64,000 nucleotides of DNA from IMG/VR virus record IMGVR_UViG_3300045988_033017, positions 54,699-118,698 of that record; one strand, written 5' to 3'. The notes beneath the pieces are model-generated. The model was not told the origin of the DNA, ran no database searches, and saw nothing but the letters and a program-made list of their open reading frames with translations. How positions within the stretch are numbered: the first letter of the stretch is position 1; every line of letters starts with the position of its first letter. The translations under genes were made by a program, and so were the position numbers. Source of the stretch: a virus. Positions 14,717-54,727 of the stretch are shown piece by piece.

Positions 14717-15016
14717 GTGTACATAGTTATGAGTAAATACGATGATTGTCATAGAGTTGACAATAGATATACCACAGCTATAGGAATGAGCGTGTGGAGA
14801 TTCTTCAATGTTGGCAAATATAAGAATCAGAAAGTGAAAGACGTCTGTTACTTCAATCCATTCTATGTAGCATGGTGTCTGGAGAACTGGCAGGGATTCA
14901 GTCTTACTAGCTACGAACGTTCCAATTACATGAAAGGACTGGAACGTCAGTTAGAGAAAGACCCTGAAGACCAAGAACTCATCTTAAAGGTGAGTAGATA
15001 TAAAACCATTGTTTGA
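14717..15016 (+). CDS. hypothetical protein
   Basis: ORF track 99 aa. Confidence 0.45.
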   Translation: MYIVMSKYDDCHRVDNRYTTAIGMSVWRFFNVGKYKNQKVKDVCYFNPFYVAWCLENWQGFSLTSYERSNYMKGLERQLEKDPEDQELILKVSRYKTIV

Positions 15017-15335
15017 TATTTTTACAGAAATGATATAATCTTCCACCATAATGGGTACGCCCGGAGACTAATGCAGAGTATCTTCCTTTAATACTGGAGA
15101 GATGTCTTATCGTGAGATAAGGCAAAGGAGTGTGGCACAGGAAGGTGGATTCCTTTACTTGTAATAATATTTTTGTTCATTTTATTACAGCATATCCTCC
15201 CGTGACGGGAGTGGCATCATGACTAAGCCTTTACGTGGCGATGCTATAAGTAAGTCAATAGACTGAAACTAATTAGTTCTTTATTAACGTTTCACTAAAA
15301 CCTCGTGAGTGTATAGGTAACTCATTAGATTAATT

Positions 15336-16142
15336 ATGAAGACATTAAAATCATCTCTCAAGTTCAGTGTAGTAGAAATCACACCGAAAGATGCAGAAGT
15401 ACTATTGTCAAAGTATTTGCACAATCGGCCTATTTCTAGAGACAATATCAACAAGTATGCTATTCAAATGTCTGAAGGTAAATGGCATTTGAACGGTGAA
15501 GCAATCATTATAAATGATAAAGGTCTTACTGATAACGGCTATCATCGTCTAGCAGCGTGCATACAGGCAGGTGTTCCATTTCAAACTGTGCTCATAGAAG
15601 GTGTTAAACACGAAACTTGGACTACCATAGATACTGGTAAAACAAGAAGTGTAGGTGATGTGTTTGGAATCATGGGCATTACTAATCCTACCCAGAAAGC
15701 TTCCATTGTGGCTAAATATTACGCTTTGACCAAGGGCTTGAAAGGTTTGGCTGATGCTGGCGCTCTTCACAGACTTAGAGGGACTGGTCTGACTCGTCAA
15801 GATTTGTTGAACATGTATAGAAAGCATGAAACTACCTTTGATGAGGTTACAGGACTTGCACTCAAGTACAAGAAGTACACTAAAGGATTACTCCATGCAT
15901 CTATGATTGGTGGTGTAACAGCTTATCTTGTTCTTGATAAGAAGCATAAATTAGATACTCTTGACGACTTCTGGAACAAAGTATCTACAAGCACACTTCC
16001 GTTGTATACGAGTGGTCGTAATCGTTTGCTGTCTGTGCGTGGTCAGGACAAACAAAAGGTTGTGACTGACCTGTGGAATAAATATATCTCTTCTAAAGAG
16101 AACATCCGCGTTAATATCACGTCTGCAATAATCTTTAAGTAA
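15336..16142 (+). CDS. ParB/Srx-like N-terminal domain protein
   Basis: 268 aa; segment KGLTDNGYHRLAACIQAG resembles the ParB-like nuclease / Srx fold GxxRxxA arginine motif. Confidence 0.5.
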   Translation: MKTLKSSLKFSVVEITPKDAEVLLSKYLHNRPISRDNINKYAIQMSEGKWHLNGEAIIINDKGLTDNGYHRLAACIQAGVPFQTVLIEGVKHETWTTIDTGKTRSVGDVFGIMGITNPTQKASIVAKYYALTKGLKGLADAGALHRLRGTGLTRQDLLNMYRKHETTFDEVTGLALKYKKYTKGLLHASMIGGVTAYLVLDKKHKLDTLDDFWNKVSTSTLPLYTSGRNRLLSVRGQDKQKVVTDLWNKYISSKENIRVNITSAIIFK

Positions 16143-16181
16143 CCAAAGGAGTGTGAGATTTCCATATTTTAAAACCTGGCA

Positions 16182-16721
16182 GTGAGTAGGTTAACTGCCA
16201 ACTTATCTATGACTAATGAATTAGCAGAGGAATACAGAGAGCTTAAACGTAACTTAATACCCATATTGTTACAGACATGTGGTAAAGAGCGTTTATGTGA
16301 TGCTGTAGACAAATGGTTATTAGTAAAATCCGGTATCAAAGTAATATCTAAATCATGGTATGAAGGTGGATTGCCTGGTAAAGAGTATGTGGTAATTAAG
16401 GATACTTCAGTACTTGCCAGCTATCCCTCTAAAGGTGCTAATTATGAACATCGTCTTGCGAGGTATAGAGCCTACACTAAGGCATTTAACCATGTAAGAG
16501 AAGAAGGAATACCTTTGGCTCCTATACAGGTTGATAAATTTACCAAAGTACTTGTCAATGGAGTAACACTATGCCTTATCGGAACTTTTGAAGGTAAATC
16601 AGAGAATGACTTTATCAAAGAGATATCTGGTAAGGTTTACGTAAAGGCAGGTACTGATTCGGTAGATGTTATTAATCTACAAACTAGAAGAACTAAAAGA
16701 TATAAAGTTCAGTACACATGA
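16182..16721 (+). CDS. hypothetical protein (start probably the ATG near 16209)
   Basis: ORF track 179 aa; the annotated start lies inside the conserved hairpin motif. Confidence 0.45.
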   Translation: MSRLTANLSMTNELAEEYRELKRNLIPILLQTCGKERLCDAVDKWLLVKSGIKVISKSWYEGGLPGKEYVVIKDTSVLASYPSKGANYEHRLARYRAYTKAFNHVREEGIPLAPIQVDKFTKVLVNGVTLCLIGTFEGKSENDFIKEISGKVYVKAGTDSVDVINLQTRRTKRYKVQYT

Positions 16722-17062
16722 AACTATACTTTAACTATACACAGAACTTCATCCTTGCAGATTGTGAGGGTGAGGTTATTGATATGAGAACTGGCCAGCC
16801 TTCTGATGCCAAACTACAATCTCATCTTAATAGCTACAAAGATGAAACTACATCTAAGTGGATTCCTATTAAGGACTTAGGAGATTTGTATGATATGTCA
16901 GATAGTGATGTGACAGTTTCTGGCAGCTTAATCACGATGTCCATTGACGGACATAAGGTTACAGCTAGACATAAGGTGTCAGCAGGAGTTAATTATGTAC
17001 AACTGACTGGACACTTCCCTCGCTACTTCTGGAAAGGATTTGCTAACTTATTAACTAAGTAA
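16718..17062 (+). CDS. hypothetical protein
   Basis: ORF track 114 aa. Confidence 0.45.
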   Translation: MKLYFNYTQNFILADCEGEVIDMRTGQPSDAKLQSHLNSYKDETTSKWIPIKDLGDLYDMSDSDVTVSGSLITMSIDGHKVTARHKVSAGVNYVQLTGHFPRYFWKGFANLLTK

Positions 17063-17064
17063 CA

Positions 17065-17298
17065 ATGTTATCGCAGATACAATTTAGGAAACAGAGAATA
17101 CCATGTACTCTCAATCATCAATCTGTTACTTCTCGTGAAGGTAAATTGCTTCTTGGGTTTGGAACTAACCAGCCCATGATGCAGCAAGCCGAAAGACAAA
17201 TTGCTAAACATCAGGTTCCTTATGAGACATCTGATTTAAACGGCATGCTTTCAATCATTATCGATTATTCTATTATCAGCAGTGTAACAACAATCTAA
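17065..17298 (+). CDS. hypothetical protein
   Basis: ORF track 77 aa. Confidence 0.35.
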   Translation: MLSQIQFRKQRIPCTLNHQSVTSREGKLLLGFGTNQPMMQQAERQIAKHQVPYETSDLNGMLSIIIDYSIISSVTTI

Positions 17299-17308
17299 CC
17301 TTTAAACA

Positions 17309-17551
17309 ATGGATATAAAGAACAGCCCTATAGTTAAACATGCAATTAACAATGACAAATCTCTTCTTCCCGGAATCATCGCTTACAGCTGCAAAGAAGC
17401 TATGGTAATGGCTAAGAGAGAATGCGGTGATTTTATAGACTTCGCCAAGGAGTGGATACAGTCCTCCAAACAGCTTTGCGAAGAAGAGAACATTCCATGG
17501 GAACAGATTAGGACAGCAACTGGAGATTCTATTGATAATTATATATCATAA
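17309..17551 (+). CDS. hypothetical protein
   Basis: ORF track 80 aa. Confidence 0.4.
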   Translation: MDIKNSPIVKHAINNDKSLLPGIIAYSCKEAMVMAKRECGDFIDFAKEWIQSSKQLCEEENIPWEQIRTATGDSIDNYIS

Positions 17552-17568
17552 TCTCCTTTCCGTCTAAA

Positions 17569-17643
17569 AGAGAGTCTGATGAGTCGTTGAAAATTACGAC
17601 GAAACTTCACTGTGATTTGGCACGTCACGGTGGAGTCACTCTT
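17569..17643 (+). ncRNA. type I hammerhead self-cleaving ribozyme (predicted cleavage between 17637 and 17638, GUC|A)
   Basis: Stem I GAGAGU/ACUCUU; CUGAUGA core; stem II GUCGU-UGAAAAUU-ACGAC (G10.1-C11.1); GAAA; stem III CUUCAC...GUGGAG closing with the A15.1-U16.1 pair; all invariant core nucleotides present. Confidence 0.8.
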
Positions 17644-17661
17644 AACCAATATTAGTAATTA

Positions 17662-17832
17662 TGAAACTCACTAAGAATAAGAAAGACAATATAATAATTA
17701 GTTCTGCCATTGGAGCATTAGTAATTATTAATATCATGTTACCCACAGCTGGCGATTTTACATATGTAATCGGAGCTATAGGTATTGTTGCGGCCATAGG
17801 AGTCTGGTTCTTACCAGATTAATCAAATAATT
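17662..17832 (+). CDS. small hydrophobic membrane peptide (56 aa), not in ORF track
   Basis: ATG at 17662; MKLTKNKKDNIIISSAIGALVIINIMLPTAGDFTYVIGAIGIVAAIGVWFLPD; two TM-like segments; immediately downstream of the ribozyme. Confidence 0.4.
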
Positions 17833-17863
17833 AATAAATCAAACTCTTTAAATTTAGAAGGAA

Positions 17864-18487
17864 ATGAAGAAATTACAAGAACGCCTGAAAGCTGGTATTG
17901 ATTTCAATCCAAAGAAAGACCCATGCTATGATTCTATCGTAGAAGAAGCTGAAACTATTCTTGGGCATGTGCTCGATGCCGCTGAAGGCAAAGAAGTTCC
18001 TTACAAGAATTTCACTGTTGGTGGCGGTTATGACGAAAGGGAAGACCGTGAAATCGTCATTGTTCGTGGCGACGGTGAAGACTTGCTCGTTATGGAAGTT
18101 AAAGACGAATCTATTCGTGTTCAACCTCATGAACGTCATGCTGTCACTCTGAATGAGGATGACGAAGCTTCTGCCCGTGAAATCTTTGACATTCTTATGA
18201 AAATGAGAGACCAAAGACAAGGCTCTACATTTAAAGTCGAAGAAGGCAAAAAAGCTTTGTTTGAGTTTCTGAAGGATATATCTAAGGCTATCGGTGCTGA
18301 TGTTGAAGGTGTTGAAACGCCAGAAGAGCTATTAAAAGCTCTCAAGGCTAGAGAAGAAGGCAATGAAGGAGCCATAGAAGATTTGATGCGTGAACAACGC
18401 ATTCATCTTACTATGCACATGCTTGACTGTTCCCGTGAGAAGGCAGAGAAGATTGTAAAGAACTTTGAAGAAGCTGTGAAGCGTTAA
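17864..18487 (+). CDS. hypothetical acidic protein (locally higher GC)
   Basis: ORF track 207 aa; strongly acidic. Confidence 0.5.
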   Translation: MKKLQERLKAGIDFNPKKDPCYDSIVEEAETILGHVLDAAEGKEVPYKNFTVGGGYDEREDREIVIVRGDGEDLLVMEVKDESIRVQPHERHAVTLNEDDEASAREIFDILMKMRDQRQGSTFKVEEGKKALFEFLKDISKAIGADVEGVETPEELLKALKAREEGNEGAIEDLMREQRIHLTMHMLDCSREKAEKIVKNFEEAVKR

Positions 18488-18497
18488 TAATGCCAAG

Positions 18498-18571
18498 AGA
18501 GGATTAGTTTAATGGTAGAAGGCTAGTTGCGAACTGGCGGAGGGAGTTCGAATCTCCCATCCTCTCCAATC
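18498..18571 (+). tRNA. tRNA, anticodon loop UUGCGAA (GCG, Arg?), non-canonical D-arm
   Basis: Acceptor AGAGGAT/ATCCTCT, T-arm GGGAG-TTCGAAT-CTCCC, anticodon stem GCTAG/CTGGC; only 69-70 nt. Confidence 0.45.
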
Positions 18572-18649
18572 ATTTTAAAGTTTTGTTTTGTATTTTGAGT
18601 TTGCCCAGCCATGTTGTGAAACACACTTGGGCTTTTAATTAATAAGTGT

Positions 18650-19003
18650 ATGAATCAGAATGCAGTTAATTCTTTAAGGAATGCCAAGAGGCATATTCTT
18701 ATTAGCGATGTTGATAAGTTCAATAGCCATTTATTGTATTACATATTAAATGTTATATATGGAACACATGACCATATTAAATTAAATACGATACGTGAAA
18801 GACTTGAACGTGAGCTTAAATGGTCATTGGACGAGCATATTCCTGATAAGGATGTAATTAGAGAATGGCTTGACAATGATTACCCTCTTATATGCATAAC
18901 AGAGTTATCGTTTGACAGTTGTATTAAACTTGCCAACGATTTCCCAGATTATGAAATTGTAGTTTATAGTTGGATGAAACATGAAGGAAACTTACCATTT
19001 TAA
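18650..19003 (+). CDS. hypothetical protein
   Basis: ORF track 117 aa. Confidence 0.45.
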   Translation: MNQNAVNSLRNAKRHILISDVDKFNSHLLYYILNVIYGTHDHIKLNTIRERLERELKWSLDEHIPDKDVIREWLDNDYPLICITELSFDSCIKLANDFPDYEIVVYSWMKHEGNLPF

Positions 19004-19685
19004 ATGGAACAAATAACTCGTAAGCTGCCAAGTCCATAATGGGTACGCCACTTAATGTGGCACAGGAGGATACTGGCTGCTATATTCATTATTTTAAATG
19101 AGACTCCTGGCATGAGAGTATAATCATGCCACTTATGGGCCATACATGGAATTGATTCATGATGACTGGGTAGTAAGACGTGTAGAGTTCGTACCAACTC
19201 TTTAATAATGATACGGCAATTTAAGTGGAAACACTACTTACAGAATGGCAGCCTAAGCTGCTGGCTTAATTAGTGGACGTCATTGATTAAGTCGGGTTAA
19301 TTGGAGAGACCTAGAAACAGAAGAGGTGTGGGAAGAAGCATATAGGGCAGTCCACTTAACTTGAAAGCCAAAGGTTAGTAAAGCTGAAATCTCCACTACC
19401 TATCTATGGGTTACAAATAGAAACGTTCTCCAACGTAAATGGAGTGGTGGAGCGACCGTTCGGTCAAGCCCAGTTTGGTAGTTTATGAACAACTAAGTCG
19501 TAGCCCTACGAGGGAGACGTAATTGGTGAATTAACACTCGGCTTCTTAGTAAAACTACCTACATGCTGAACTCAACAGCTGATGTAATAAAATAGAGACA
19601 CACGTAATCTTATTGTTTAGAGTTGTGAAGACCGCGGTTCGAGTCCGCGATGGTCCACTATTATTAACGTTTAAATATCAATTTT
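19004..19685 (+). other. 680-bp non-coding structured region ending in a tRNA T-arm plus acceptor-like minihelix (19626-19661)
   Basis: No ORF; 3' end CGCGG-TTCGAGT-CCGCG then GTCCACTA, which pairs with TAGTGGAC at 19268-19275 about 390 nt upstream; shares the motif CCATAATGGGTACGCC...TGTGGCACAGGA with 15046-15170. Confidence 0.4.
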
Positions 19686-20039
19686 ATGGGATTATTTATT
19701 ATTGCAGTGATTGTTTTACTTATTTGTGTATGTCTTTCGCGAGTAGGGTCTGAAGACCTAAGAGGAGTTGCAGTGGCAGTTGAGGTTGTATTCTCAATAG
19801 CAACAGTTGGGGCAGCGATTTCATTACCATTCGCTATTACAAGGAATATTCAAATTATTGGCAAGCACGCAGTGCTCAAAGAAACATTAGAAGCTACTAA
19901 TAGGAAGAATTATTATCTTATATCTAGTGATGTCTTAAGGCTTAATTATACTATCATGAATCATAGGAACTTTGTAGACAACTTCTGGATTGGGATATGG
20001 TATGATAAGGACGTAGCTAAATTGGAACTATTAAAATGA
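19686..20039 (+). CDS. hypothetical membrane protein
   Basis: ORF track 117 aa; hydrophobic N-terminal helices. Confidence 0.45.
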   Translation: MGLFIIAVIVLLICVCLSRVGSEDLRGVAVAVEVVFSIATVGAAISLPFAITRNIQIIGKHAVLKETLEATNRKNYYLISSDVLRLNYTIMNHRNFVDNFWIGIWYDKDVAKLELLK

Positions 20040-21533: not shown

Positions 21534-21913
21534 ATCCACTATTGACGAATGGTGGTAGCAAAACTTGGTCTGAAGAACCAGTAGACATATTCCGGAGTAT
21601 GTCTATGACTTAAAGGCTATATCAAAGAGTTGAAACCTGTATCTATTCGAACAGTAGAAGTTCACCTGATTAAGCATCAGAAAACAGTAGTGCAAATCTA
21701 CTATAGATATTGTGTAAGAGAGAATCTACACGGTCTGCATTATATAATCAGCATGCAGATAGGTCACCAAGCAAACCTCTTTCCTGCCTGGTCAAGTGTG
21801 CATTACGGTCTGTAAGTGGCGAGCGGGTTAACGTATGTCCGATTGCCGTAATGCCGCTTGTTTATTGTTTAGAATAAAGAAAGACTCTCATAACAATAAA
21901 TTTAAACAAAGAG

Positions 21914-23608
21914 ATGGAAATGAAAGGAGCACAAAGGCCAAGGAGGCCTTACCCTAATGCCGCACGTCAAAGGCGGGATGAGAATAAACCTAAGTTTGTG
22001 GATAATAATCAGTTATTCATAGACCAGTTTGTTAATCTTAAGAAATGTCTTCAGCCACGTACCTACGTGCAAGTGGCTAAAGATATGTATCCTTTATGGA
22101 AAGCTAATCCATTACTATGTACTAAGTTTACTGCATATACGAGAATGATAACTCGTAAATGTAGAATAACTACCCCGGAAGGAGTTATACAACTTGATAC
22201 ACAGCAAGGAGAAGGTTTGAAGAATGAAGGTATAATGAGAATGTTGTGGTTGGCAATCTATCACAAACCCACATTCCATGCCAACATTGTTTATTTTGCA
22301 GCAGCTGGATGCTGGAAAGATTTCATTACTATGATGGCTTTAGATGTTCAACTCCATGGCTTTAAGCACAGATTGGATTGGGACTTCTTCAAGAAAGTCA
22401 TATTCGCAGGTCTTGCCAACGGTCAGACATGTGATTTAGTAAAGAAGTATCTTCCTCGTGTTCGTTCCAGTGTTGCATGTAAGACAGATGAGGCAAAAGC
22501 ACGTAACACAGTAGCCAAATTCTTGGCGGAAGGCCTTTATGGTAAACCTAAGGACGAAGGAGACTATTCAACCTATCGTAAATATAGGAAGATGAAGAAT
22601 AGCGGGAAAGCAGCCCAATGGCAGCAGTTAATCAGTCAAAAGAAATTCTTGGAAATTGATTTTGACACTGTTACTGGAAAGGCGCTGGCACAGCTAGTAG
22701 GCTCTAAATTCCTCAAACATCAAGGTCTTAAAGAGAAGTATCAGAACTGGTTGAAGAACCGTAAGAAGCCCTCTAATAGCGGATTTCTACATACTCTGTT
22801 CAAACCATACGGATTGGATAAAATTGCCGAAGAGATTCCAGAATTTATGGAAACTTCTATTAATGCAAGTTTCAATGTATTTGTTGATAATGCTAAACGC
22901 AATAGAGTAGCTCCGTTGTTGGTAGTAAGAGATATAAGTCATTCTGCTAATGGTGAGATAGAGAATAGCGAAACATCTGCTTACAGTTTGGGTAAAGCAT
23001 ATGCTTTATATCATTCTGAATTACTTCCTACAATATTCAAGAACTCCTATGCCGTGTTAGAGGATAACATGGTTCTACGTAAGTTCAAAGGTCAGAATGT
23101 CATTGAGAAATGGAAATCTGACAAAGAAGAAGCATTATGCCAGAATCCTTCTATTATTAATATAGCAGAAATGCTGTGTAAAATGAAAGAAGATTATGGT
23201 GTGGATGAAGGAGAGTTCCCTAGAGGCTGTGTGGTAATTACTAACCATACATATTTTACCAAGTTGAACAACCAAGCATTCGTGGAATTTAAGCAGAGAT
23301 TGCTTAAAGCAAATTTCAGTAAGGAATTTGTAAGAGCATTCAAAGTTATCATTTGGAGAGTTCCTTTAGCATATAAGGGAAGACCTAATGTGGCTTTGGT
23401 TCCAGGAGTGTCAAATTGCTTCTTAGTAAATGGACTTAATAATTCAACATCCTCATTTATTACTGGAGAGAAGAGGTTCCAGGTGCCTAAAACCACTAGA
23501 GACATTTTTAAGCATGCTATGAATCAAGAGTTGCTTAATATGATGATTCTAGAGAAGGATGTTGTCAAGAAGAATGCAAGCGTGCAGAAGAAGCCTGTGA
23601 AGGCCTAA
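21914..23608 (+). CDS. Ro60/TROVE-like protein with C-terminal vWA domain (Rsr-like candidate)
   Basis: 564 aa; vWA MIDAS motif in APLLVVRDISHSANG (compare human Ro60 KRFLLAVDVSASM); upstream blocks MLWLAIY and LHTLFKPY resemble Ro60 PMLFALAI and LLRLSHLKP; architecture is an N-terminal alpha region of about 330 aa followed by vWA, as in TROVE proteins. Confidence 0.5.
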   Translation: MEMKGAQRPRRPYPNAARQRRDENKPKFVDNNQLFIDQFVNLKKCLQPRTYVQVAKDMYPLWKANPLLCTKFTAYTRMITRKCRITTPEGVIQLDTQQGEGLKNEGIMRMLWLAIYHKPTFHANIVYFAAAGCWKDFITMMALDVQLHGFKHRLDWDFFKKVIFAGLANGQTCDLVKKYLPRVRSSVACKTDEAKARNTVAKFLAEGLYGKPKDEGDYSTYRKYRKMKNSGKAAQWQQLISQKKFLEIDFDTVTGKALAQLVGSKFLKHQGLKEKYQNWLKNRKKPSNSGFLHTLFKPYGLDKIAEEIPEFMETSINASFNVFVDNAKRNRVAPLLVVRDISHSANGEIENSETSAYSLGKAYALYHSELLPTIFKNSYAVLEDNMVLRKFKGQNVIEKWKSDKEEALCQNPSIINIAEMLCKMKEDYGVDEGEFPRGCVVITNHTYFTKLNNQAFVEFKQRLLKANFSKEFVRAFKVIIWRVPLAYKGRPNVALVPGVSNCFLVNGLNNSTSSFITGEKRFQVPKTTRDIFKHAMNQELLNMMILEKDVVKKNASVQKKPVKA

Positions 23609-25926: not shown

Positions 25927-25998
25927 GCCCCATTACTTCAGTGGTAGAAGAGCAAATTCTAAACTTGTATGGCGTTGGTTCGAGTCCAACATGGGGCA
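25927..25998 (+). tRNA. tRNA with CTA anticodon (amber suppressor-like)
   Basis: Acceptor GCCCCAT/ATGGGGC, D-arm CTTC-AGTGGTA-GAAG, anticodon stem GCAAA/CTTGT, loop TTCTAAA gives CUA; T-arm GTTGG-TTCGAGT-CCAAC. Confidence 0.5.
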
Positions 25999-26000
25999 CT

Positions 26001-26071: not shown

Positions 26072-26106
26072 CTACAGTCATTGTGCATTTGCATTTTCAG
26101 AATGCT

Positions 26107-26171
26107 AAGAAGACAAACAGCAATTTCCTGTATGTTGGCATAAGTAAATGAATCTATTGTCTTCTGATGAT
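26107..26171 (+). repeat. tRNA-leader stem-loop element, copy a (AAGAAGAC...ACAGCA...GTCTTCTG)
   Basis: 8-bp inverted ends enclosing about 45 nt, immediately 5' of tRNA-Ile. Confidence 0.6.
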
Positions 26172-26245
26172 GGGTGTGTAGCTCAGTCGGTTAGAGCACA
26201 TCTCTGATAAGGATGAGGTCCCTGGTTCAATTCCAGGCACACCCA
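26172..26245 (+). tRNA. tRNA-Ile(GAT)
   Basis: Acceptor GGGTGTG/CACACCC, D-arm AGCTCAGTCGGTTAGAGC, anticodon loop CTGATAA, T-arm CCTGG-TTCAATT-CCAGG. Confidence 0.75.
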
Positions 26246-26274
26246 CAATACAACAATTTTCAATAGCTTTGAAT

Positions 26275-26347
26275 AAGAAGTCTTACAGCACGAAAGAAAG
26301 TGTTTCATATTTTATGATTTTAATTAAACTAAGAGACTTCTGTAGTT
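26275..26347 (+). repeat. tRNA-leader stem-loop element, copy b (AAGAAGTC...ACAGCAC...GACTTCTG)
   Basis: Inverted ends, 5' of tRNA-Pro. Confidence 0.55.
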
Positions 26348-26420
26348 ATGGGTGTAATTCAGTAGGTAGAATGCTAGGTTTGGGACCTAGTTGTCGCCAG
26401 TTCGAGTCTGGCTACCCATA
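26348..26420 (+). tRNA. tRNA-Pro(TGG)
   Basis: Anticodon stem CTAGG/CCTAG, loop TTTGGGA; T-arm GCCAG-TTCGAGT-CTGGC. Confidence 0.7.
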
Positions 26421-26645
26421 CTCCCCGTGGTATCCAAGAGAGGATGCTGATAATCCCATAATAGCAAATATGGACAACTACTCAGTTCGTGAGAATAGAG
26501 TAGTTTTAATAAGAACCATAATTAACACAATAATATATAGTTTCACTAAACAATCATCAAATCAACTCAACAATCAACCCAACAACTTTTAATTTATGAT
26601 TTGATTAACCTGTTTCATAGTTAAGCCCATAAGTCGTATTGATAT

Positions 26646-26717
26646 GTGGGCTTGCCCGAGAGGTTTAGGGGCTGGTCCGCAAAACCAGTTAGGACGGTTC
26701 GATTCCGTCAGCCCACT
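26646..26717 (+). tRNA. tRNA-Cys(GCA) (unusual C33)
   Basis: Acceptor GTGGGCT/AGCCCAC, anticodon stem CTGGT/ACCAG, loop CCGCAAA; T-arm GACGG-TTCGATT-CCGTC. Confidence 0.5.
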
Positions 26718-26735
26718 CTCGATTTAGTGAAACAT

Positions 26736-26800
26736 AAGAAGGCGTACAGCACTAATCATTGTACAGTTTACATGTTTTTGATAACGCGCCTTCTGTGGAT
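26736..26800 (+). repeat. tRNA-leader stem-loop element, copy c (AAGAAGGC...ACAGCAC...GCCTTCTG)
   Basis: Inverted ends, 5' of tRNA-Lys. Confidence 0.55.
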
Positions 26801-26872
26801 GATTCCGGAGCATGTATGGATATGCTATAGACTTTTAATCTATAGAACAGGGTTCAAGTCCCTGCGGAATCA
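26801..26872 (+). tRNA. tRNA-Lys(TTT)
   Basis: Acceptor GATTCCG/CGGAATC, anticodon stem ATAGA/TCTAT, loop CTTTTAA; T-arm CAGGG-TTCAAGT-CCCTG. Confidence 0.65.
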
Positions 26873-26977
26873 CATATGTACTAAGATTGTACATGATGTC
26901 AAAGAACGAGTTTAACCACTCAGTCTGTGAAGATAGAGTGGTTTATTTAGATTATTAATTTAAAATCAGATACATTT

Positions 26978-27121
26978 ATGAGTAAGATTATTGGAGTATT
27001 GTTAGTAATTGGTTCTGTTATAGGAACAGTTGCTTGTATAGCTCAACATCAATTTAATCCATTCACTGGAGTATTGTTGTTGCTAGTATTTTGCTTTGGT
27101 TGCTGTTTAGTGATGAGCTAG
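26978..27121 (+). CDS. small hydrophobic peptide (47 aa) within the tRNA island
   Basis: ATG at 26978; MSKIIGVLLVIGSVIGTVACIAQHQFNPFTGVLLLLVFCFGCCLVMS; not in ORF track. Confidence 0.35.
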   Translation: MSKIIGVLLVIGSVIGTVACIAQHQFNPFTGVLLLLVFCFGCCLVMS

Positions 27122-27297
27122 ATTATTTATTTATTGACTAAAACTGATGTATTATGAGACTATTTAAGTTAATTAAGAAAGCAGTTCGTTGGTATTTCAA
27201 AGTGTCAGCTGATAGCTACACGTGGTATCCAACAGGAGTAGTTCCTTACCATAGGGATTAACTCCGATGCAATCGGGATAGGTCAATTAAACATTTG

Positions 27298-27372
27298 GGA
27301 AGGAAGCTTAAGTGGTATACAGCTGCGGCCTGTTAAGCCGAAGATAGCGAGTTCGAGTCTCGCCCTTCCCGC
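27298..27372 (+). tRNA. tRNA-Asn(GTT)
   Basis: Acceptor GGGAAGG/CCTTCCC, anticodon loop CTGTTAA, T-arm GCGAG-TTCGAGT-CTCGC. Confidence 0.6.
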
Positions 27373-27485
27373 ATTATTAACATTAAATTATAAGATTATG
27401 CATAGTTTTGGTGCTTACATTGTGGGAGCTATAGTGCTAGTAGTACTGTATTATATCTTTAAAGATTCCACAATCTAAAATTGAT

Positions 27486-27560
27486 GCGTCCTTAGCTCAA
27501 TCGGTAGAGCCCCTGTCTCCAAAACTGGGTGTGTTGCATGTTCGAGTCGTGCAGGGCGTG
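27486..27560 (+). tRNA. tRNA-Trp(CCA)
   Basis: Anticodon arm CCTGT-CTCCAAA-ACTGG resembles E. coli tRNA-Trp (CCGGU-CUCCAAA-ACCGG); D-arm AGCTCAATCGGTAGAGC. Confidence 0.6.
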
Positions 27561-27570
27561 CTTATTAATT

Positions 27571-27656
27571 GGAAGTATGGCAGAGTTGGTCGATTGCACT
27601 GGTCTTGAAAACCAGAGGTCCTTCGGGGTCCGGGGGTTCGAATCCCTCTGCTTCCT
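27571..27656 (+). tRNA. tRNA-Ser(TGA), type II
   Basis: Anticodon stem CTGGT/ACCAG, loop CTTGAAA; long variable arm AGGTCCTTCGGGGTCC; T-arm GGGGG-TTCGAAT-CCCTC. Confidence 0.75.
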
Positions 27657-27675
27657 CAACTAATTTGAATGTACT

Positions 27676-27999
27676 ATGAAGTTTAAAGTGAAATTAAGGA
27701 GAGTGTCTACGTTAAGTAGAAACCAAATTTGTAGAGTGTACGAATCTGGAATGCGAGTAATGGTGAAACGTCCCACATTAGTTAGAGTCCTTCTTAAGGA
27801 TTACAAAACTAAAGAAGATGTTAATGCTTTACTTGAGCAATTAAGCGAAGCAAGTAGAGCCGCTGAACAGGATTTATATGCAGAGTACCCAAAGTTGCCC
27901 AGAAAGGCTAAGAAGGAACTCAAGAAAAGGTTGAATGCAGTCAATAATGCCTATTGTGTTGGTATTACTTTATTGCTGGCTGAATCAGATGGCTTATAA
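27676..27999 (+). CDS. hypothetical basic protein
   Basis: ORF track 107 aa. Confidence 0.45.
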   Translation: MKFKVKLRRVSTLSRNQICRVYESGMRVMVKRPTLVRVLLKDYKTKEDVNALLEQLSEASRAAEQDLYAEYPKLPRKAKKELKKRLNAVNNAYCVGITLLLAESDGL

Positions 28000-38414: not shown

Positions 38415-39872
38415 ATGGCAAAGAACATTATTCCGCAAGGAACTACAGCTGCTATTAAGCAGAGAGTTAACAAGTACGAGGAAACTCAGAAACAGAGAAT
38501 GATTGAAGTGCTCCAAAGCAACGTGAAGTATGCTGATGCTCTGGGATTCATCGAAGGTGAAATCAAACAGTCCAAGAAAATGGCAAGTTTCAAATACTCG
38601 CTGCTTTGTTGGAAACCGGACGGTGTATATCAGTTGAACAGAGCAATCAATGAAATCTTCGGTTCTGCCGTTAGTAAGGAGGATAACAGTCCTTCTGGAA
38701 ACAGCAATATTGATACCGTAGACGTTGTTCTGGCAGACGGTTCTCGTACCAAGGTTCCGTTTGGTAAAATCAGCCTTGAAGAATTGGGAGAAGATTCTGA
38801 AATCAACATCAACTATGACAATGACCGTCATTTGCTCCTTATTAAAGGACAATGCCAGTTCAAATACCAGTCATTGATTGATGATATTGTTGACAGAACT
38901 AAAGAGCTGTTAGCATCGGAGTCTATCTACAAGAATCAAGCACTGGAAATCAGCAATCTGTCTGAACCTACTATCATGACACTTGCCGGCATTGAGAAAC
39001 AATTCATGGTTCTTTCTAAGAAGACTGAATTTGAATTGCAACCGCTACGTTCAAGAATCTTGTATCCGGAGAAATGTCTGGCTAAAGGTATTCCATTGAA
39101 GTACGGTTGTTTGCTGGAAGGTAAATATGGTACAGGTAAGACCTTGCTGGCATTTAAGCTGGCTAAAGATGCTGTGACAAACGGCTGGTCATTCGTGTAT
39201 TTGAAGAATCCTTCTCTTCTTGCAGAAACTCTGCGCATGTGTAAAGTTGTTGACCGTTCGGGCCATGGTGTTGTCGTATTTGTTGAAGATATTGACCAAG
39301 TAACTAGAGGTAACAGAGATGCTGCTATGCAAGACATCCTGAATACTCTGGACGGTGGTGATACCAAAGACATGAACGTAATCACCTTGTTCACTACTAA
39401 TCACATTGAATTGATTGAACCTACCTTCTTGAGAGGTAAGAGAATCGGCTCTGTGATTACTATGGACTGCCTGGACGCTGAAACTGCGGAGAAATTCATC
39501 CGTTCTACCTTCACCGCTGAAGAAGGATATACAATCGACGATGATTTGAGTGAAGTATGTAACTACATTCAAGAAGCTGAAATTGCTCCGGCATTTATGG
39601 CTGAAATCGTTGAATCAACCAAATCCAAACTTATCTTTACAGAAGAAACCCATGTAACATCGTTCCATATCAAAGCTAGCGTTGAATCTTATCAACGTCA
39701 ACTTGGACTCGCATCCAAGAAAGCTGTTGTGGAAACTCCGGCTGAAAGATTGGTAAATGCTCTCAAACTCGTTCTGGGTACAGAGAAGCTTGAAGCAATC
39801 ACTCAGATGTGTGAGTATCAGTGGGAACTCGACCGTAAGGACTATTCTACGGAGAAGAAAGACAACAAATAA
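38415..39872 (+). CDS. AAA+ ATPase
   Basis: 485 aa; Walker A LLEGKYGTGKTLLA, Walker B VVVFVEDID, sensor-1 LFTTN, arginine-finger region LRGKRIG. Confidence 0.7.
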   Translation: MAKNIIPQGTTAAIKQRVNKYEETQKQRMIEVLQSNVKYADALGFIEGEIKQSKKMASFKYSLLCWKPDGVYQLNRAINEIFGSAVSKEDNSPSGNSNIDTVDVVLADGSRTKVPFGKISLEELGEDSEININYDNDRHLLLIKGQCQFKYQSLIDDIVDRTKELLASESIYKNQALEISNLSEPTIMTLAGIEKQFMVLSKKTEFELQPLRSRILYPEKCLAKGIPLKYGCLLEGKYGTGKTLLAFKLAKDAVTNGWSFVYLKNPSLLAETLRMCKVVDRSGHGVVVFVEDIDQVTRGNRDAAMQDILNTLDGGDTKDMNVITLFTTNHIELIEPTFLRGKRIGSVITMDCLDAETAEKFIRSTFTAEEGYTIDDDLSEVCNYIQEAEIAPAFMAEIVESTKSKLIFTEETHVTSFHIKASVESYQRQLGLASKKAVVETPAERLVNALKLVLGTEKLEAITQMCEYQWELDRKDYSTEKKDNK

Positions 39873-50889: not shown

Positions 50890-51035
50890 CTATAAGTGCT
50901 CTTGCGCTGGAAGAGGCTAAAATTAAAGGAAGCATGTAAGTAATACTGTGAGTTATGCTGACAGACCGTCCACGTGAAAAGCCCAGTACGTGATACTGGC
51001 AAGGGCGGCCGTTAAATCGGAATTGCTTCCTGTAT

Positions 51036-54550: not shown

Positions 54551-54727
54551 ATGGCTTCACGTAAGAAAGGTACGGCACCTCATAAGCCGAAGAAGGTGTA
54601 TGAATTTGTTAAGTTAATGAATTGTGCAAGGTGTGGTAGAGATACTACTCACACGCTGTTCGATTATGACAACAGGCTTTATAAATGTAATGTCTGTGGG
54701 GCAGTTTATACCAAACGTGGTAAATAA
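54551..54727 (+). CDS. zinc-ribbon small protein (58 aa), not in ORF track
   Basis: ATG at 54551; MASRKKGTAPHKPKKVYEFVKLMNCARCGRDTTHTLFDYDNRLYKCNVCGAVYTKRGK; two CxxC pairs. Confidence 0.4.
   Translation: MASRKKGTAPHKPKKVYEFVKLMNCARCGRDTTHTLFDYDNRLYKCNVCGAVYTKRGK

Follow-up and report, generated by a model that had tools for sequence, protein, structure and literature searches.

What is encoded at positions 19004-19685 of a 64,000-nucleotide (nt) stretch of viral DNA (IMG/VR record IMGVR_UViG_3300045988_033017, positions 54,699 to 118,698; this whole stretch is called the window), and what are the two related non-coding elements of which one lies within that segment and the other about 4 kb upstream? 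A preliminary description made from the letters alone had noted, correctly apart from short mechanical ones, that the segment holds no open reading frame (ORF), and had proposed an RNA of about 390 nt at its 3' end. The segment very probably carries a phage-encoded one-piece transfer-messenger RNA (tmRNA, ssrA) gene of 524 nt, at 19137-19660 on the + strand, and the two related elements are copies of one structured RNA motif, here called motif A, which is distinct from the tmRNA.

Identification of the tmRNA gene

The Rfam tmRNA model RF00023 matches 19137-19660 over its full length (model positions 1-374), with 60 bits against a cut-off of 47 and an E-value of about 1e-21 to 1e-23; the relatives of this gene score 68-82 bits. 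The assignment is secure and ordinary in kind, and tmRNA family membership is shown here, as are fold, strand, conservation and clade restriction. Homologues were sought in the fetched loci (designated by L and a number) with the T-arm as an anchor, followed by a 7-bp acceptor partner 300-700 nt upstream, which gave 16 tmRNA homologues of 522-604 nt, from several lineages on related gut-phage contigs, representing 10 distinct variants; their 5' ends were picked by requiring pairing, and in the alignment they coincide with a homologous GGGC...UGG..UUGA start. The tmRNA regions of the related lineages are 72-81% identical to the window.

The acceptor stem is formed by GGGCCAU at 19137-19143 and AUGGUCC at 19650-19656, followed by the discriminator A at 19657, and the perfect T-arm already reported from the letters alone is in place at 19633-19649 (CGCGG at 19633-37, loop UUCGAGU, CCGCG at 19645-49). 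All seven acceptor pairs are formed in all 10 distinct variants, three of them being altered on both sides (GGGCCAU/AUGGUCC, GGGCCUA/UAGGUCC, GGGCUUG/CAAGUCC), and 4 of the 5 T-arm pairs show compensatory changes among the relatives. When acceptor and T-arm are joined, 120 of 120 cells (100%) are paired in the 10 distinct variants, as against 26-55% in slid controls, with compensatory change in 7 of the 12 pairs. The pair G3:U70 is invariant across the 10 variants and G2:C71 is present in the window gene; together with the discriminator A (A73), these make up the alanine identity set recognised by alanyl-tRNA synthetase.

The shorter RNA first proposed, a tRNA-like or intron-containing molecule of about 390 nt at 19271-19660, would be closed by TAGTGGAC and GTCCACTA and would leave the tag frame outside; it can be given next to no credence. 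The 8-nt complementarity on which it was built does exist in the window, between TAGTGGAC at 19271-19278 (three bases from the position 19268 given for it) and GTCCACTA at 19653-19660, but among the 16 homologues 46.5% of the cells are paired, which is no better than the slid controls (19-45%), and 6 of the 8 pairs depart solely by unpaired cells. Moreover, TAGTGGAC lies in the tip of a variable internal hairpin and is replaced in L008, L018 and L032, the 3' strand is already taken by the covarying 7-bp acceptor that starts at 19137, and both the tag frame and the first pseudoknot, PK1, would fall outside the RNA. What stands of that proposal is a tmRNA-like RNA with a T-arm and a tag frame; its size is 524 nt, and its ends are joined by GGGCCAU/AUGGUCC, which is 100% paired and shows compensatory changes, and not by TAGTGGAC/GTCCACTA.

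The covariance-model scans that the preliminary description had suggested thus turned up the tmRNA, though neither of the other two RNA classes it had named. Apart from tmRNA, no Rfam family reaches E<=1 or E<=10 in either region. Intron_gpI is unmatched in 18950-19750 (threshold E<=1) and in both 14950-15350 and L009 2040-2810 (threshold E<=10), and ARAGORN calls no interrupted tRNA; the genes flanking the elements also differ between relatives, so that no consistent exons are available for an intron. Y_RNA and YrlA, too, are unmatched, both in the window as a whole at the gathering threshold and in the two regions at E<=1 to 10.

Interior of the tmRNA and the tag frame

Inside the acceptor, the Rfam alignment pairs the 5' strand of the long helix H2, at 19156-19182, with 19601-19629. 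RNAalifold, run on the 16-sequence alignment, recovers H2 and the T-arm with many compensatory changes, those in H2 falling at 7 positions (alignment columns 21-48 with 622-651). The PK1 region follows at 19183-19217, where the same Rfam alignment places a hairpin UAGAGU/ACUCUU whose loop CGUA pairs with a downstream UACG; stem 1 is invariant among relatives, and stem 2 is maintained in L027 by way of GCA/UGC, one compensatory case. Compared with the Rfam consensus, the gene has about 150 additional nt, which lie in the PK2-PK4 region, where about 200 nt take the place of 93 model nucleotides and three segments vary in length between relatives.

The tag frame, as read from the sequence, runs GGA AAC ACU ACU UAC AGA AUG GCA GCC UAA at 19227-19256 and translates to (A)GNTTYRMAA; the frame ending in YRMAA that had been noticed at the outset is thus real, with its UAA stop at 19254-56 rather than an end at 19262, and a hairpin lies around the stop codon. 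Both the stop codon and the (R/K)MAA end of the tag are conserved among the relatives, most of whose presumed resume codons are Gly (GGA/GGC). The relatives' tags include GNTEVRMAA and GNTEVKMAA, while the frame of L008 and L027, GCU GAA AUC GAC UAC AAC AGA AUG GCA GCC UAA, gives AEIDYNRMAA. Synonymous wobble changes are seen in the last Ala (GCC/GCG/GCU) and the first Gly (GGA/GGC), as selection on a coding frame produces. The presumed resume codon is preceded by UAAGU in the window (before GGA) and by UAGUU in L008 (before GCU); the corresponding context in E. coli is UAGUC before GCA.

A leader hairpin at 19109-19130 (+), made of GGCAUGA, the conserved loop GAGUAUAA and UCAUGCC, ends 6 nt 5' of the tmRNA start. 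Its stem covaries, to GGCACGA/UCGUGCC in L008 and to AGUGCAG/CUGCACU in L009, L011 and L029, and its loop is also legible as a TATAAT-like box.

Standing, origin and proposed action of the tmRNA

Several observations weigh against this assignment. The RF00023 score is only 13 bits over the cut-off, ARAGORN makes no tmRNA call in the window or in 10 related loci, and a tblastn search with E. coli SmpB finds no SmpB in the 64-kb window, itself under half of a genome, so that the RNA would rely on host SmpB. Stem 2 of PK1 is short (3-5 bp) and has a C-A mismatch in several relatives, and PK1 on its own is weakly supported. The resume codon is placed, most likely at GGA 19227, by its likeness to E. 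coli. Finally, CCA is unencoded in all variants, the 3' end being A-CUA in the window and ACAA, ACAU or ACUU in the relatives. Many bacterial tRNA and tmRNA genes receive their CCA after transcription; here too it would be added post-transcriptionally, and its absence does not disqualify the gene from membership.

The unencoded CCA and the lack of a detected SmpB gene in the window would also fit a dead fragment or an attP-type remnant of a host ssrA, pieces of which are often carried by phages that integrate at ssrA (a point also discussed in PMC9004378). Such an origin is very improbable, as the gene is full length from the acceptor 5' strand to the discriminator and persists in lineages at 72-81% identity, where three of its helices carry compensatory changes and its tag frame carries synonymous ones. 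The pattern indicates purifying selection on a functional RNA.

If the phage tmRNA acts as bacterial ones do, it would be processed at its 5' end, given its CCA by the host and then charged with alanine, and together with SmpB it would enter stalled ribosomes. Translation would resume within the tag frame, with GGA 19227 as the likeliest resume codon; the nascent chain would gain the (A)GNTTYRMAA tag, and the ribosome would be freed at UAA 19254-56; for both charging and tagging, we infer this from sequence. A working tag could let the phage choose the signal by which proteins are directed to a host protease.

In its 7-bp acceptor, G3:U70 pair, discriminator A, UUCGAxU T-loop and H2, as well as in a PK1 placed before a short tag frame ending ...AA-UAA and a hairpin around the stop codon, the RNA is like the bacterial one-piece tmRNA of RF00023. 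The common bacterial tag end is ALAA. Unlike the bacterial RNA, the gene is phage-borne, measures 524 nt (522-604 in the clade) against a 374-position consensus, does not encode CCA and is invisible to ARAGORN; RMAA forms the end of its tag, and Gly is the presumed resume codon in most variants.

Phage tmRNAs are already known, and what is distinctive in this gene is its length, its RMAA tag end and its invisibility to ARAGORN. Both tmRNA and SmpB genes have been reported in huge phages (PMC7162821), and of 18,146 phage genomes surveyed with ARAGORN, 402 had a tmRNA, among them that of phage Melnitz (PMC9004378). The present gene resembles those of both reports in being a complete ssrA in a large, tRNA-rich phage genome, where it presumably keeps the hijacked translation apparatus running. 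It differs in that huge phages often carry SmpB too, while none was found in the 64-kb window, and in that both surveys used ARAGORN, which is blind to the window's clade. A whole group of long (522-604 nt) phage tmRNAs therefore escapes the tool of the published surveys, whose counts are lower bounds.

Sequence and fold of motif A

The two related elements of the preliminary description are exact repeats and, moreover, share a common RNA fold: 15043-15148 and 19023-19081 are copies of a single structured RNA motif. An exact CCATAATGGGTACGCC is present at two sites of the window, 15046-15061 and 19034-19049, and nowhere else (expectation when as many as 3 mismatches are allowed: 0.2 matches), and TGTGGCACAGGARG is found, exact and unique to both places, at 15131-15144 and 19056-19069. 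The insertion reported in the first copy is present, with a length of 63 nt (69 nt at 15062-15130 against 6 nt) instead of 65. Two or three covarying helices surround an invariant asymmetric internal loop, with AAUGGGUAC on the 5' side and ACAGGA on the 3' side.

The short form, at 19023-19081 (+), is scored at 93 bits by our own covariance model. Its helices are P0 (19023-30/19074-81, 8 bp), P1 (19032-35/19068-71, 4 bp) and P2 (19047-51/19057-61), and its loop strands are J5, AUAAUGGGUAC at 19036-46 (11 nt, within which AAUGGGUAC never varies), and J3, ACAGGA at 19062-67 (6 nt). Among 9 distinct variants, 97.3% of the cells are paired, as against 31-62% in slid controls, and 4 pairs are changed on both sides.

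In the long form, at 15043-15148 (+), P1 is CCACC at 15043-47 with GGUGG at 15144-48, the base of P2 is GCC at 15059-61 with GGC at 15134-36, J5 lies at 15048-58 and J3 (ACAGGAA) at 15137-43, with a 72-nt multi-helix insert at 15062-15133. Across 19 distinct long forms, the inner 5 pairs of P1 are retained, 3 positions showing compensatory changes, and the variants include CCACC/GGUGG, GACC/GGUC, CAUC/GAUG and UAGCAUC/GAUGCUA. P2 may hold anything from a loop of 3-5 nt to a multi-helix insert of about 190 nt; the long-form insert is shortest in L133 (about 17 nt) and longest in L011 (about 190 nt), and the window's long copy is, through loss, 19 nt shorter than most of its relatives'.

Since motif A contains many G:U pairs, the folded strand is that of the + strand RNA. 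This bears on the idea, to which we give only a very slight chance, that the copies act at the level of DNA, for instance as recombination sites or as operators for a protein, and are kept alike by gene conversion. They are direct repeats about 4 kb apart in an interval prone to rearrangement, as such elements might be, but the helices are kept through compensatory changes and G:U pairs, which would be C-A mismatches on the other strand, and the core is invariant between distant clades with single copies, where gene conversion cannot act. The same core is unchanged in contigs that share 72-81% identity with the window in their tmRNA regions.

Distribution and possible role of motif A

With its filters off, our covariance model finds motif A at the two window sites only, without diverged extras. 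Pattern scans of IMG/VR, GTDB and the JGI/ENA metagenomes confine the true copies to the related gut-phage clade, with one or two per genome. The 58 stretches returned by the GTDB genome scan are nearly all due to chance (coding sequence; tRNA-Leu with its leader in metagenome-assembled genomes (MAGs) of Clostridia), and the sole true copy lies on a 163-kb contig binned with a Bacteroides MAG, a weak hint as to the host; the metagenome scan gave further copies from the related gut-phage clade and otherwise chance matches.

Both window copies lie in intergenic leaders, 20-25 nt past a stop codon, one before the tmRNA and the other before the structured stretch described below as element B. Variable helices on either side of an invariant asymmetric loop, and a P2 open to inserts of any kind, suggest a module for recognition of a protein or small ligand in intergenic leaders, a reading that we consider plausible, if short of probable; its GGUAC and GGAA strands could form a bulged-G (sarcin-ricin-like) turn. 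Such a module might govern the processing of the transcript, or its read-through, into the downstream RNA genes. That motif A is a new class of cis-acting RNA, whether a minimal self-cleaving ribozyme or a switch operated by a ligand or protein, which would control the maturation or read-through of the tmRNA and element B in a gut-phage clade with many translation-related RNAs, is put forward more tentatively.

A number of observations count against a role of this kind. The tmRNAs of L009, L011, L017, L029, L030 and L027 have no motif A upstream, and these six lineages keep only the covarying hairpin with the GAGUAUAA loop before the tmRNA 5' end; in L073, with no tmRNA, the short form immediately precedes a membrane-protein ORF; and L032 and L140 have lost half of the long copy through deletions. 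No clear terminator or expression platform follows motif A. Since motif A and the tmRNA each occur alone, the motif is best described as a free-standing module of intergenic leaders. A role as a sigma-70 promoter or intrinsic terminator was considered and set aside, the flanking U-tracts and -10-like boxes being unconserved between clades.

One possibility is that motif A is a new small self-cleaving ribozyme that would cut a polycistronic transcript and so separate the mRNA from the tmRNA precursor or element B downstream of it. Small ribozymes usually show the pattern seen here, with some 15 unpaired, invariant core nucleotides, variable helices and P2 inserts of 3-190 nt; they abound in the clade (the window has a hammerhead core at 17550-17642, and relatives have a pistol ribozyme and a RAGATH-1 hammerhead), and motif A stands at gene boundaries beside RNA genes. 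We nevertheless think it unlikely. The long form with element B, searched down to E<=10, and the short form, searched to E<=1, give no match to a known self-cleaving family (hammerhead, twister, twister-sister, pistol, hatchet, hairpin, HDV-like). Reduced to its minimum, the motif amounts to one internal loop of about 36 nt in which neither a pseudoknot nor a further loop is evident, and it is simpler than any known natural self-cleaver; and no conserved cleavage dinucleotide is identifiable. At the same thresholds, no aptamer model of the known riboswitch classes, including glnA/glutamine, matches motif A, nor does any Rfam family match the short form (E<=1) or the long form with element B (E<=10).

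As a recognition module, motif A may be compared with the nut sites of phage lambda and put of HK022, small structured RNA sites of which one or two are present per phage genome, in intergenic leaders. The layout is similar, with the motif on the same strand as the genes that follow, though there is no sequence or structural similarity, and the resemblance is one of layout rather than of membership. A precedent for a small structured cis-RNA beside a phage tmRNA gene is given by the OM43 phage Melnitz, in which a two-piece tmRNA has an associated glutamine riboswitch (PMC9004378). There, the tmRNA is permuted and the riboswitch is of the known glnA type; the present tmRNA is in one piece, and for motif A no riboswitch family gives a match. 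Motif A is also found away from the tmRNA.

Element B and the rearranging interval

Element B, a conserved structured stretch with covarying helices at 15196-15280 (+), follows every intact long-form motif A, and is itself followed by different genes according to the clade. It consists of a hairpin, a GGCAUC/GAUGCU helix around the invariant CCUUUACGUGG, then AUAAGUAA, a covarying hairpin and UGAAAC; covariation is seen as GGCACC/GGUGCU, as CUCUCAA/UUGAGGG and in variants of the hairpin. Rfam has no match to it at E<=10, and motif A and element B are thus both structures supported by covariation and absent from Rfam, in a phage region dense with tRNAs and ribozymes. Two other explanations were tried and rejected. 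Element B is not a decayed 5' half of a tmRNA, local alignment being no better than with shuffled sequences, and a group I intron at 15046-15335, to which GAGACUAAUG-like strings and the adjacent ORF had pointed, has no Rfam match and differing flanking genes.

That adjacent ORF, of 268 amino acids (aa) at 15336-16142 (+), matches phrog_5931, of unknown function, with E=2e-39; it has no Pfam or NCBIfam match, and a ParB-like DNGYHRLAA motif can be read in it by eye. It adjoins them in some clades only, and it lies downstream of motif A and element B in the window's clade and upstream of them in the L009 clade. In L032, a deletion of about 1 kb between two copies of the 12-nt repeat CAAAGGAGTGTG (15124-15135 and 16145-16156 in the window) has removed the equivalent of window positions 15135-16146, that is, the 3' half of motif A, element B and the 268-aa ORF. 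Other fusions and deletions in the same interval are found in L140, L133, L189 and L222 (fusions in L140 and L189, a minimal form in L133), and the interval from motif A to the ORF is a rearrangement hotspot.

After the ParB-like ORF in the L009 clade sits a further conserved element, a hairpin within a hairpin, CGUAAUGGGUG-CUAG..CUAG-CACC..CACCCAU (L009 2072-2150; also in L011, L020, L026, L029, L030 and L033). It has UAAUGGGU in common with motif A and a different fold (AUGGGUG/CACCCAU).

Genomic setting and neighbouring elements

The window appears to belong to a large phage genome: its large ORFs match phage protein families, and ARAGORN finds in its 64 kb 29 tRNA genes, all on the + strand, amid which the tmRNA gene lies in a phage-like region. 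The surroundings of the elements described here are 99.5-99.8% identical to IMG/VR contig 3300045988_037023 (147 kb), and many further contigs of 83-190 kb from IMG/VR and human-gut metagenomes show 72-98% identity to them. The only GenBank phage matches are two unannotated 'Bacteriophage sp.' records from human faeces.

The tRNAs include a CUA-anticodon suppressor at 25927-25999 (+), labelled 'Pyl' by ARAGORN, with a counterpart at L037 1687-1760, which hints at TAG recoding in part of the phage group; the tmRNA tag terminates at UAA and would thus be unaffected. A tRNA-Arg (anticodon GCG) with a low tRNA score of 43 bits lies about 570 nt 5' of the tmRNA, at 18498-18567 (+). Within the tRNA array, an SPFH/Band-7 protein and an AAA ATPase are encoded at 31031-32992 and 38415-39872 (+).

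The hammerhead core at 17550-17642 (+), between the two copies of motif A, was recognised by eye as AGAGU-CUGAUGA-stem II-GAAAC-stem III-GUC-ACUCU and is below the Rfam cut-offs, with 23.8 bits for RAGATH-1-hammerhead (cut-off 56.3) and 21.3 bits for Hammerhead_3. A RAGATH-34 RNA at 21536-21643 (+), with 119 bits in Rfam, lies 270 nt 5' of a 564-aa ORF at 21914-23608 (+); RAGATH-34 is also found 1.3-1.9 kb 3' of the tmRNA in L009, L011, L030 and L037. The ORF matches phrog_850 ('RNA-binding protein') and Bacillus-phage proteins that carry a DUF2828 or RNA-binding annotation, while its Pfam DUF2828 match is weak (E=0.027) and it has no PDB match. The RNA and the protein could form a pair. The ORF product was also considered as a Ro/TROVE partner of a Y-like RNA, a tentative reading for which phrog_850 and the weak DUF2828 similarity are the sole support.

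A repeat of 60-75 nt, uAAGAAG..UACAGCAC ... CUUCUG(A/U)(U/G)GAU, stands directly 5' of at least 5 tRNA genes, with copies at 26100-26171, 26275-26347, 26730-26800, 28685-28752 and 33010-33079 and weaker ones at 35240-35302 and 50970-51035. There is no Rfam match at E<=1 in 26080-28780. Its stem, AGAAGnnn/nnnCUUCU, covaries between copies, and it may be a tRNA-leader processing structure. An 8-nt complementarity between ACAGGAGG of motif A and CCUUCUGU of this repeat is judged to be compositional.

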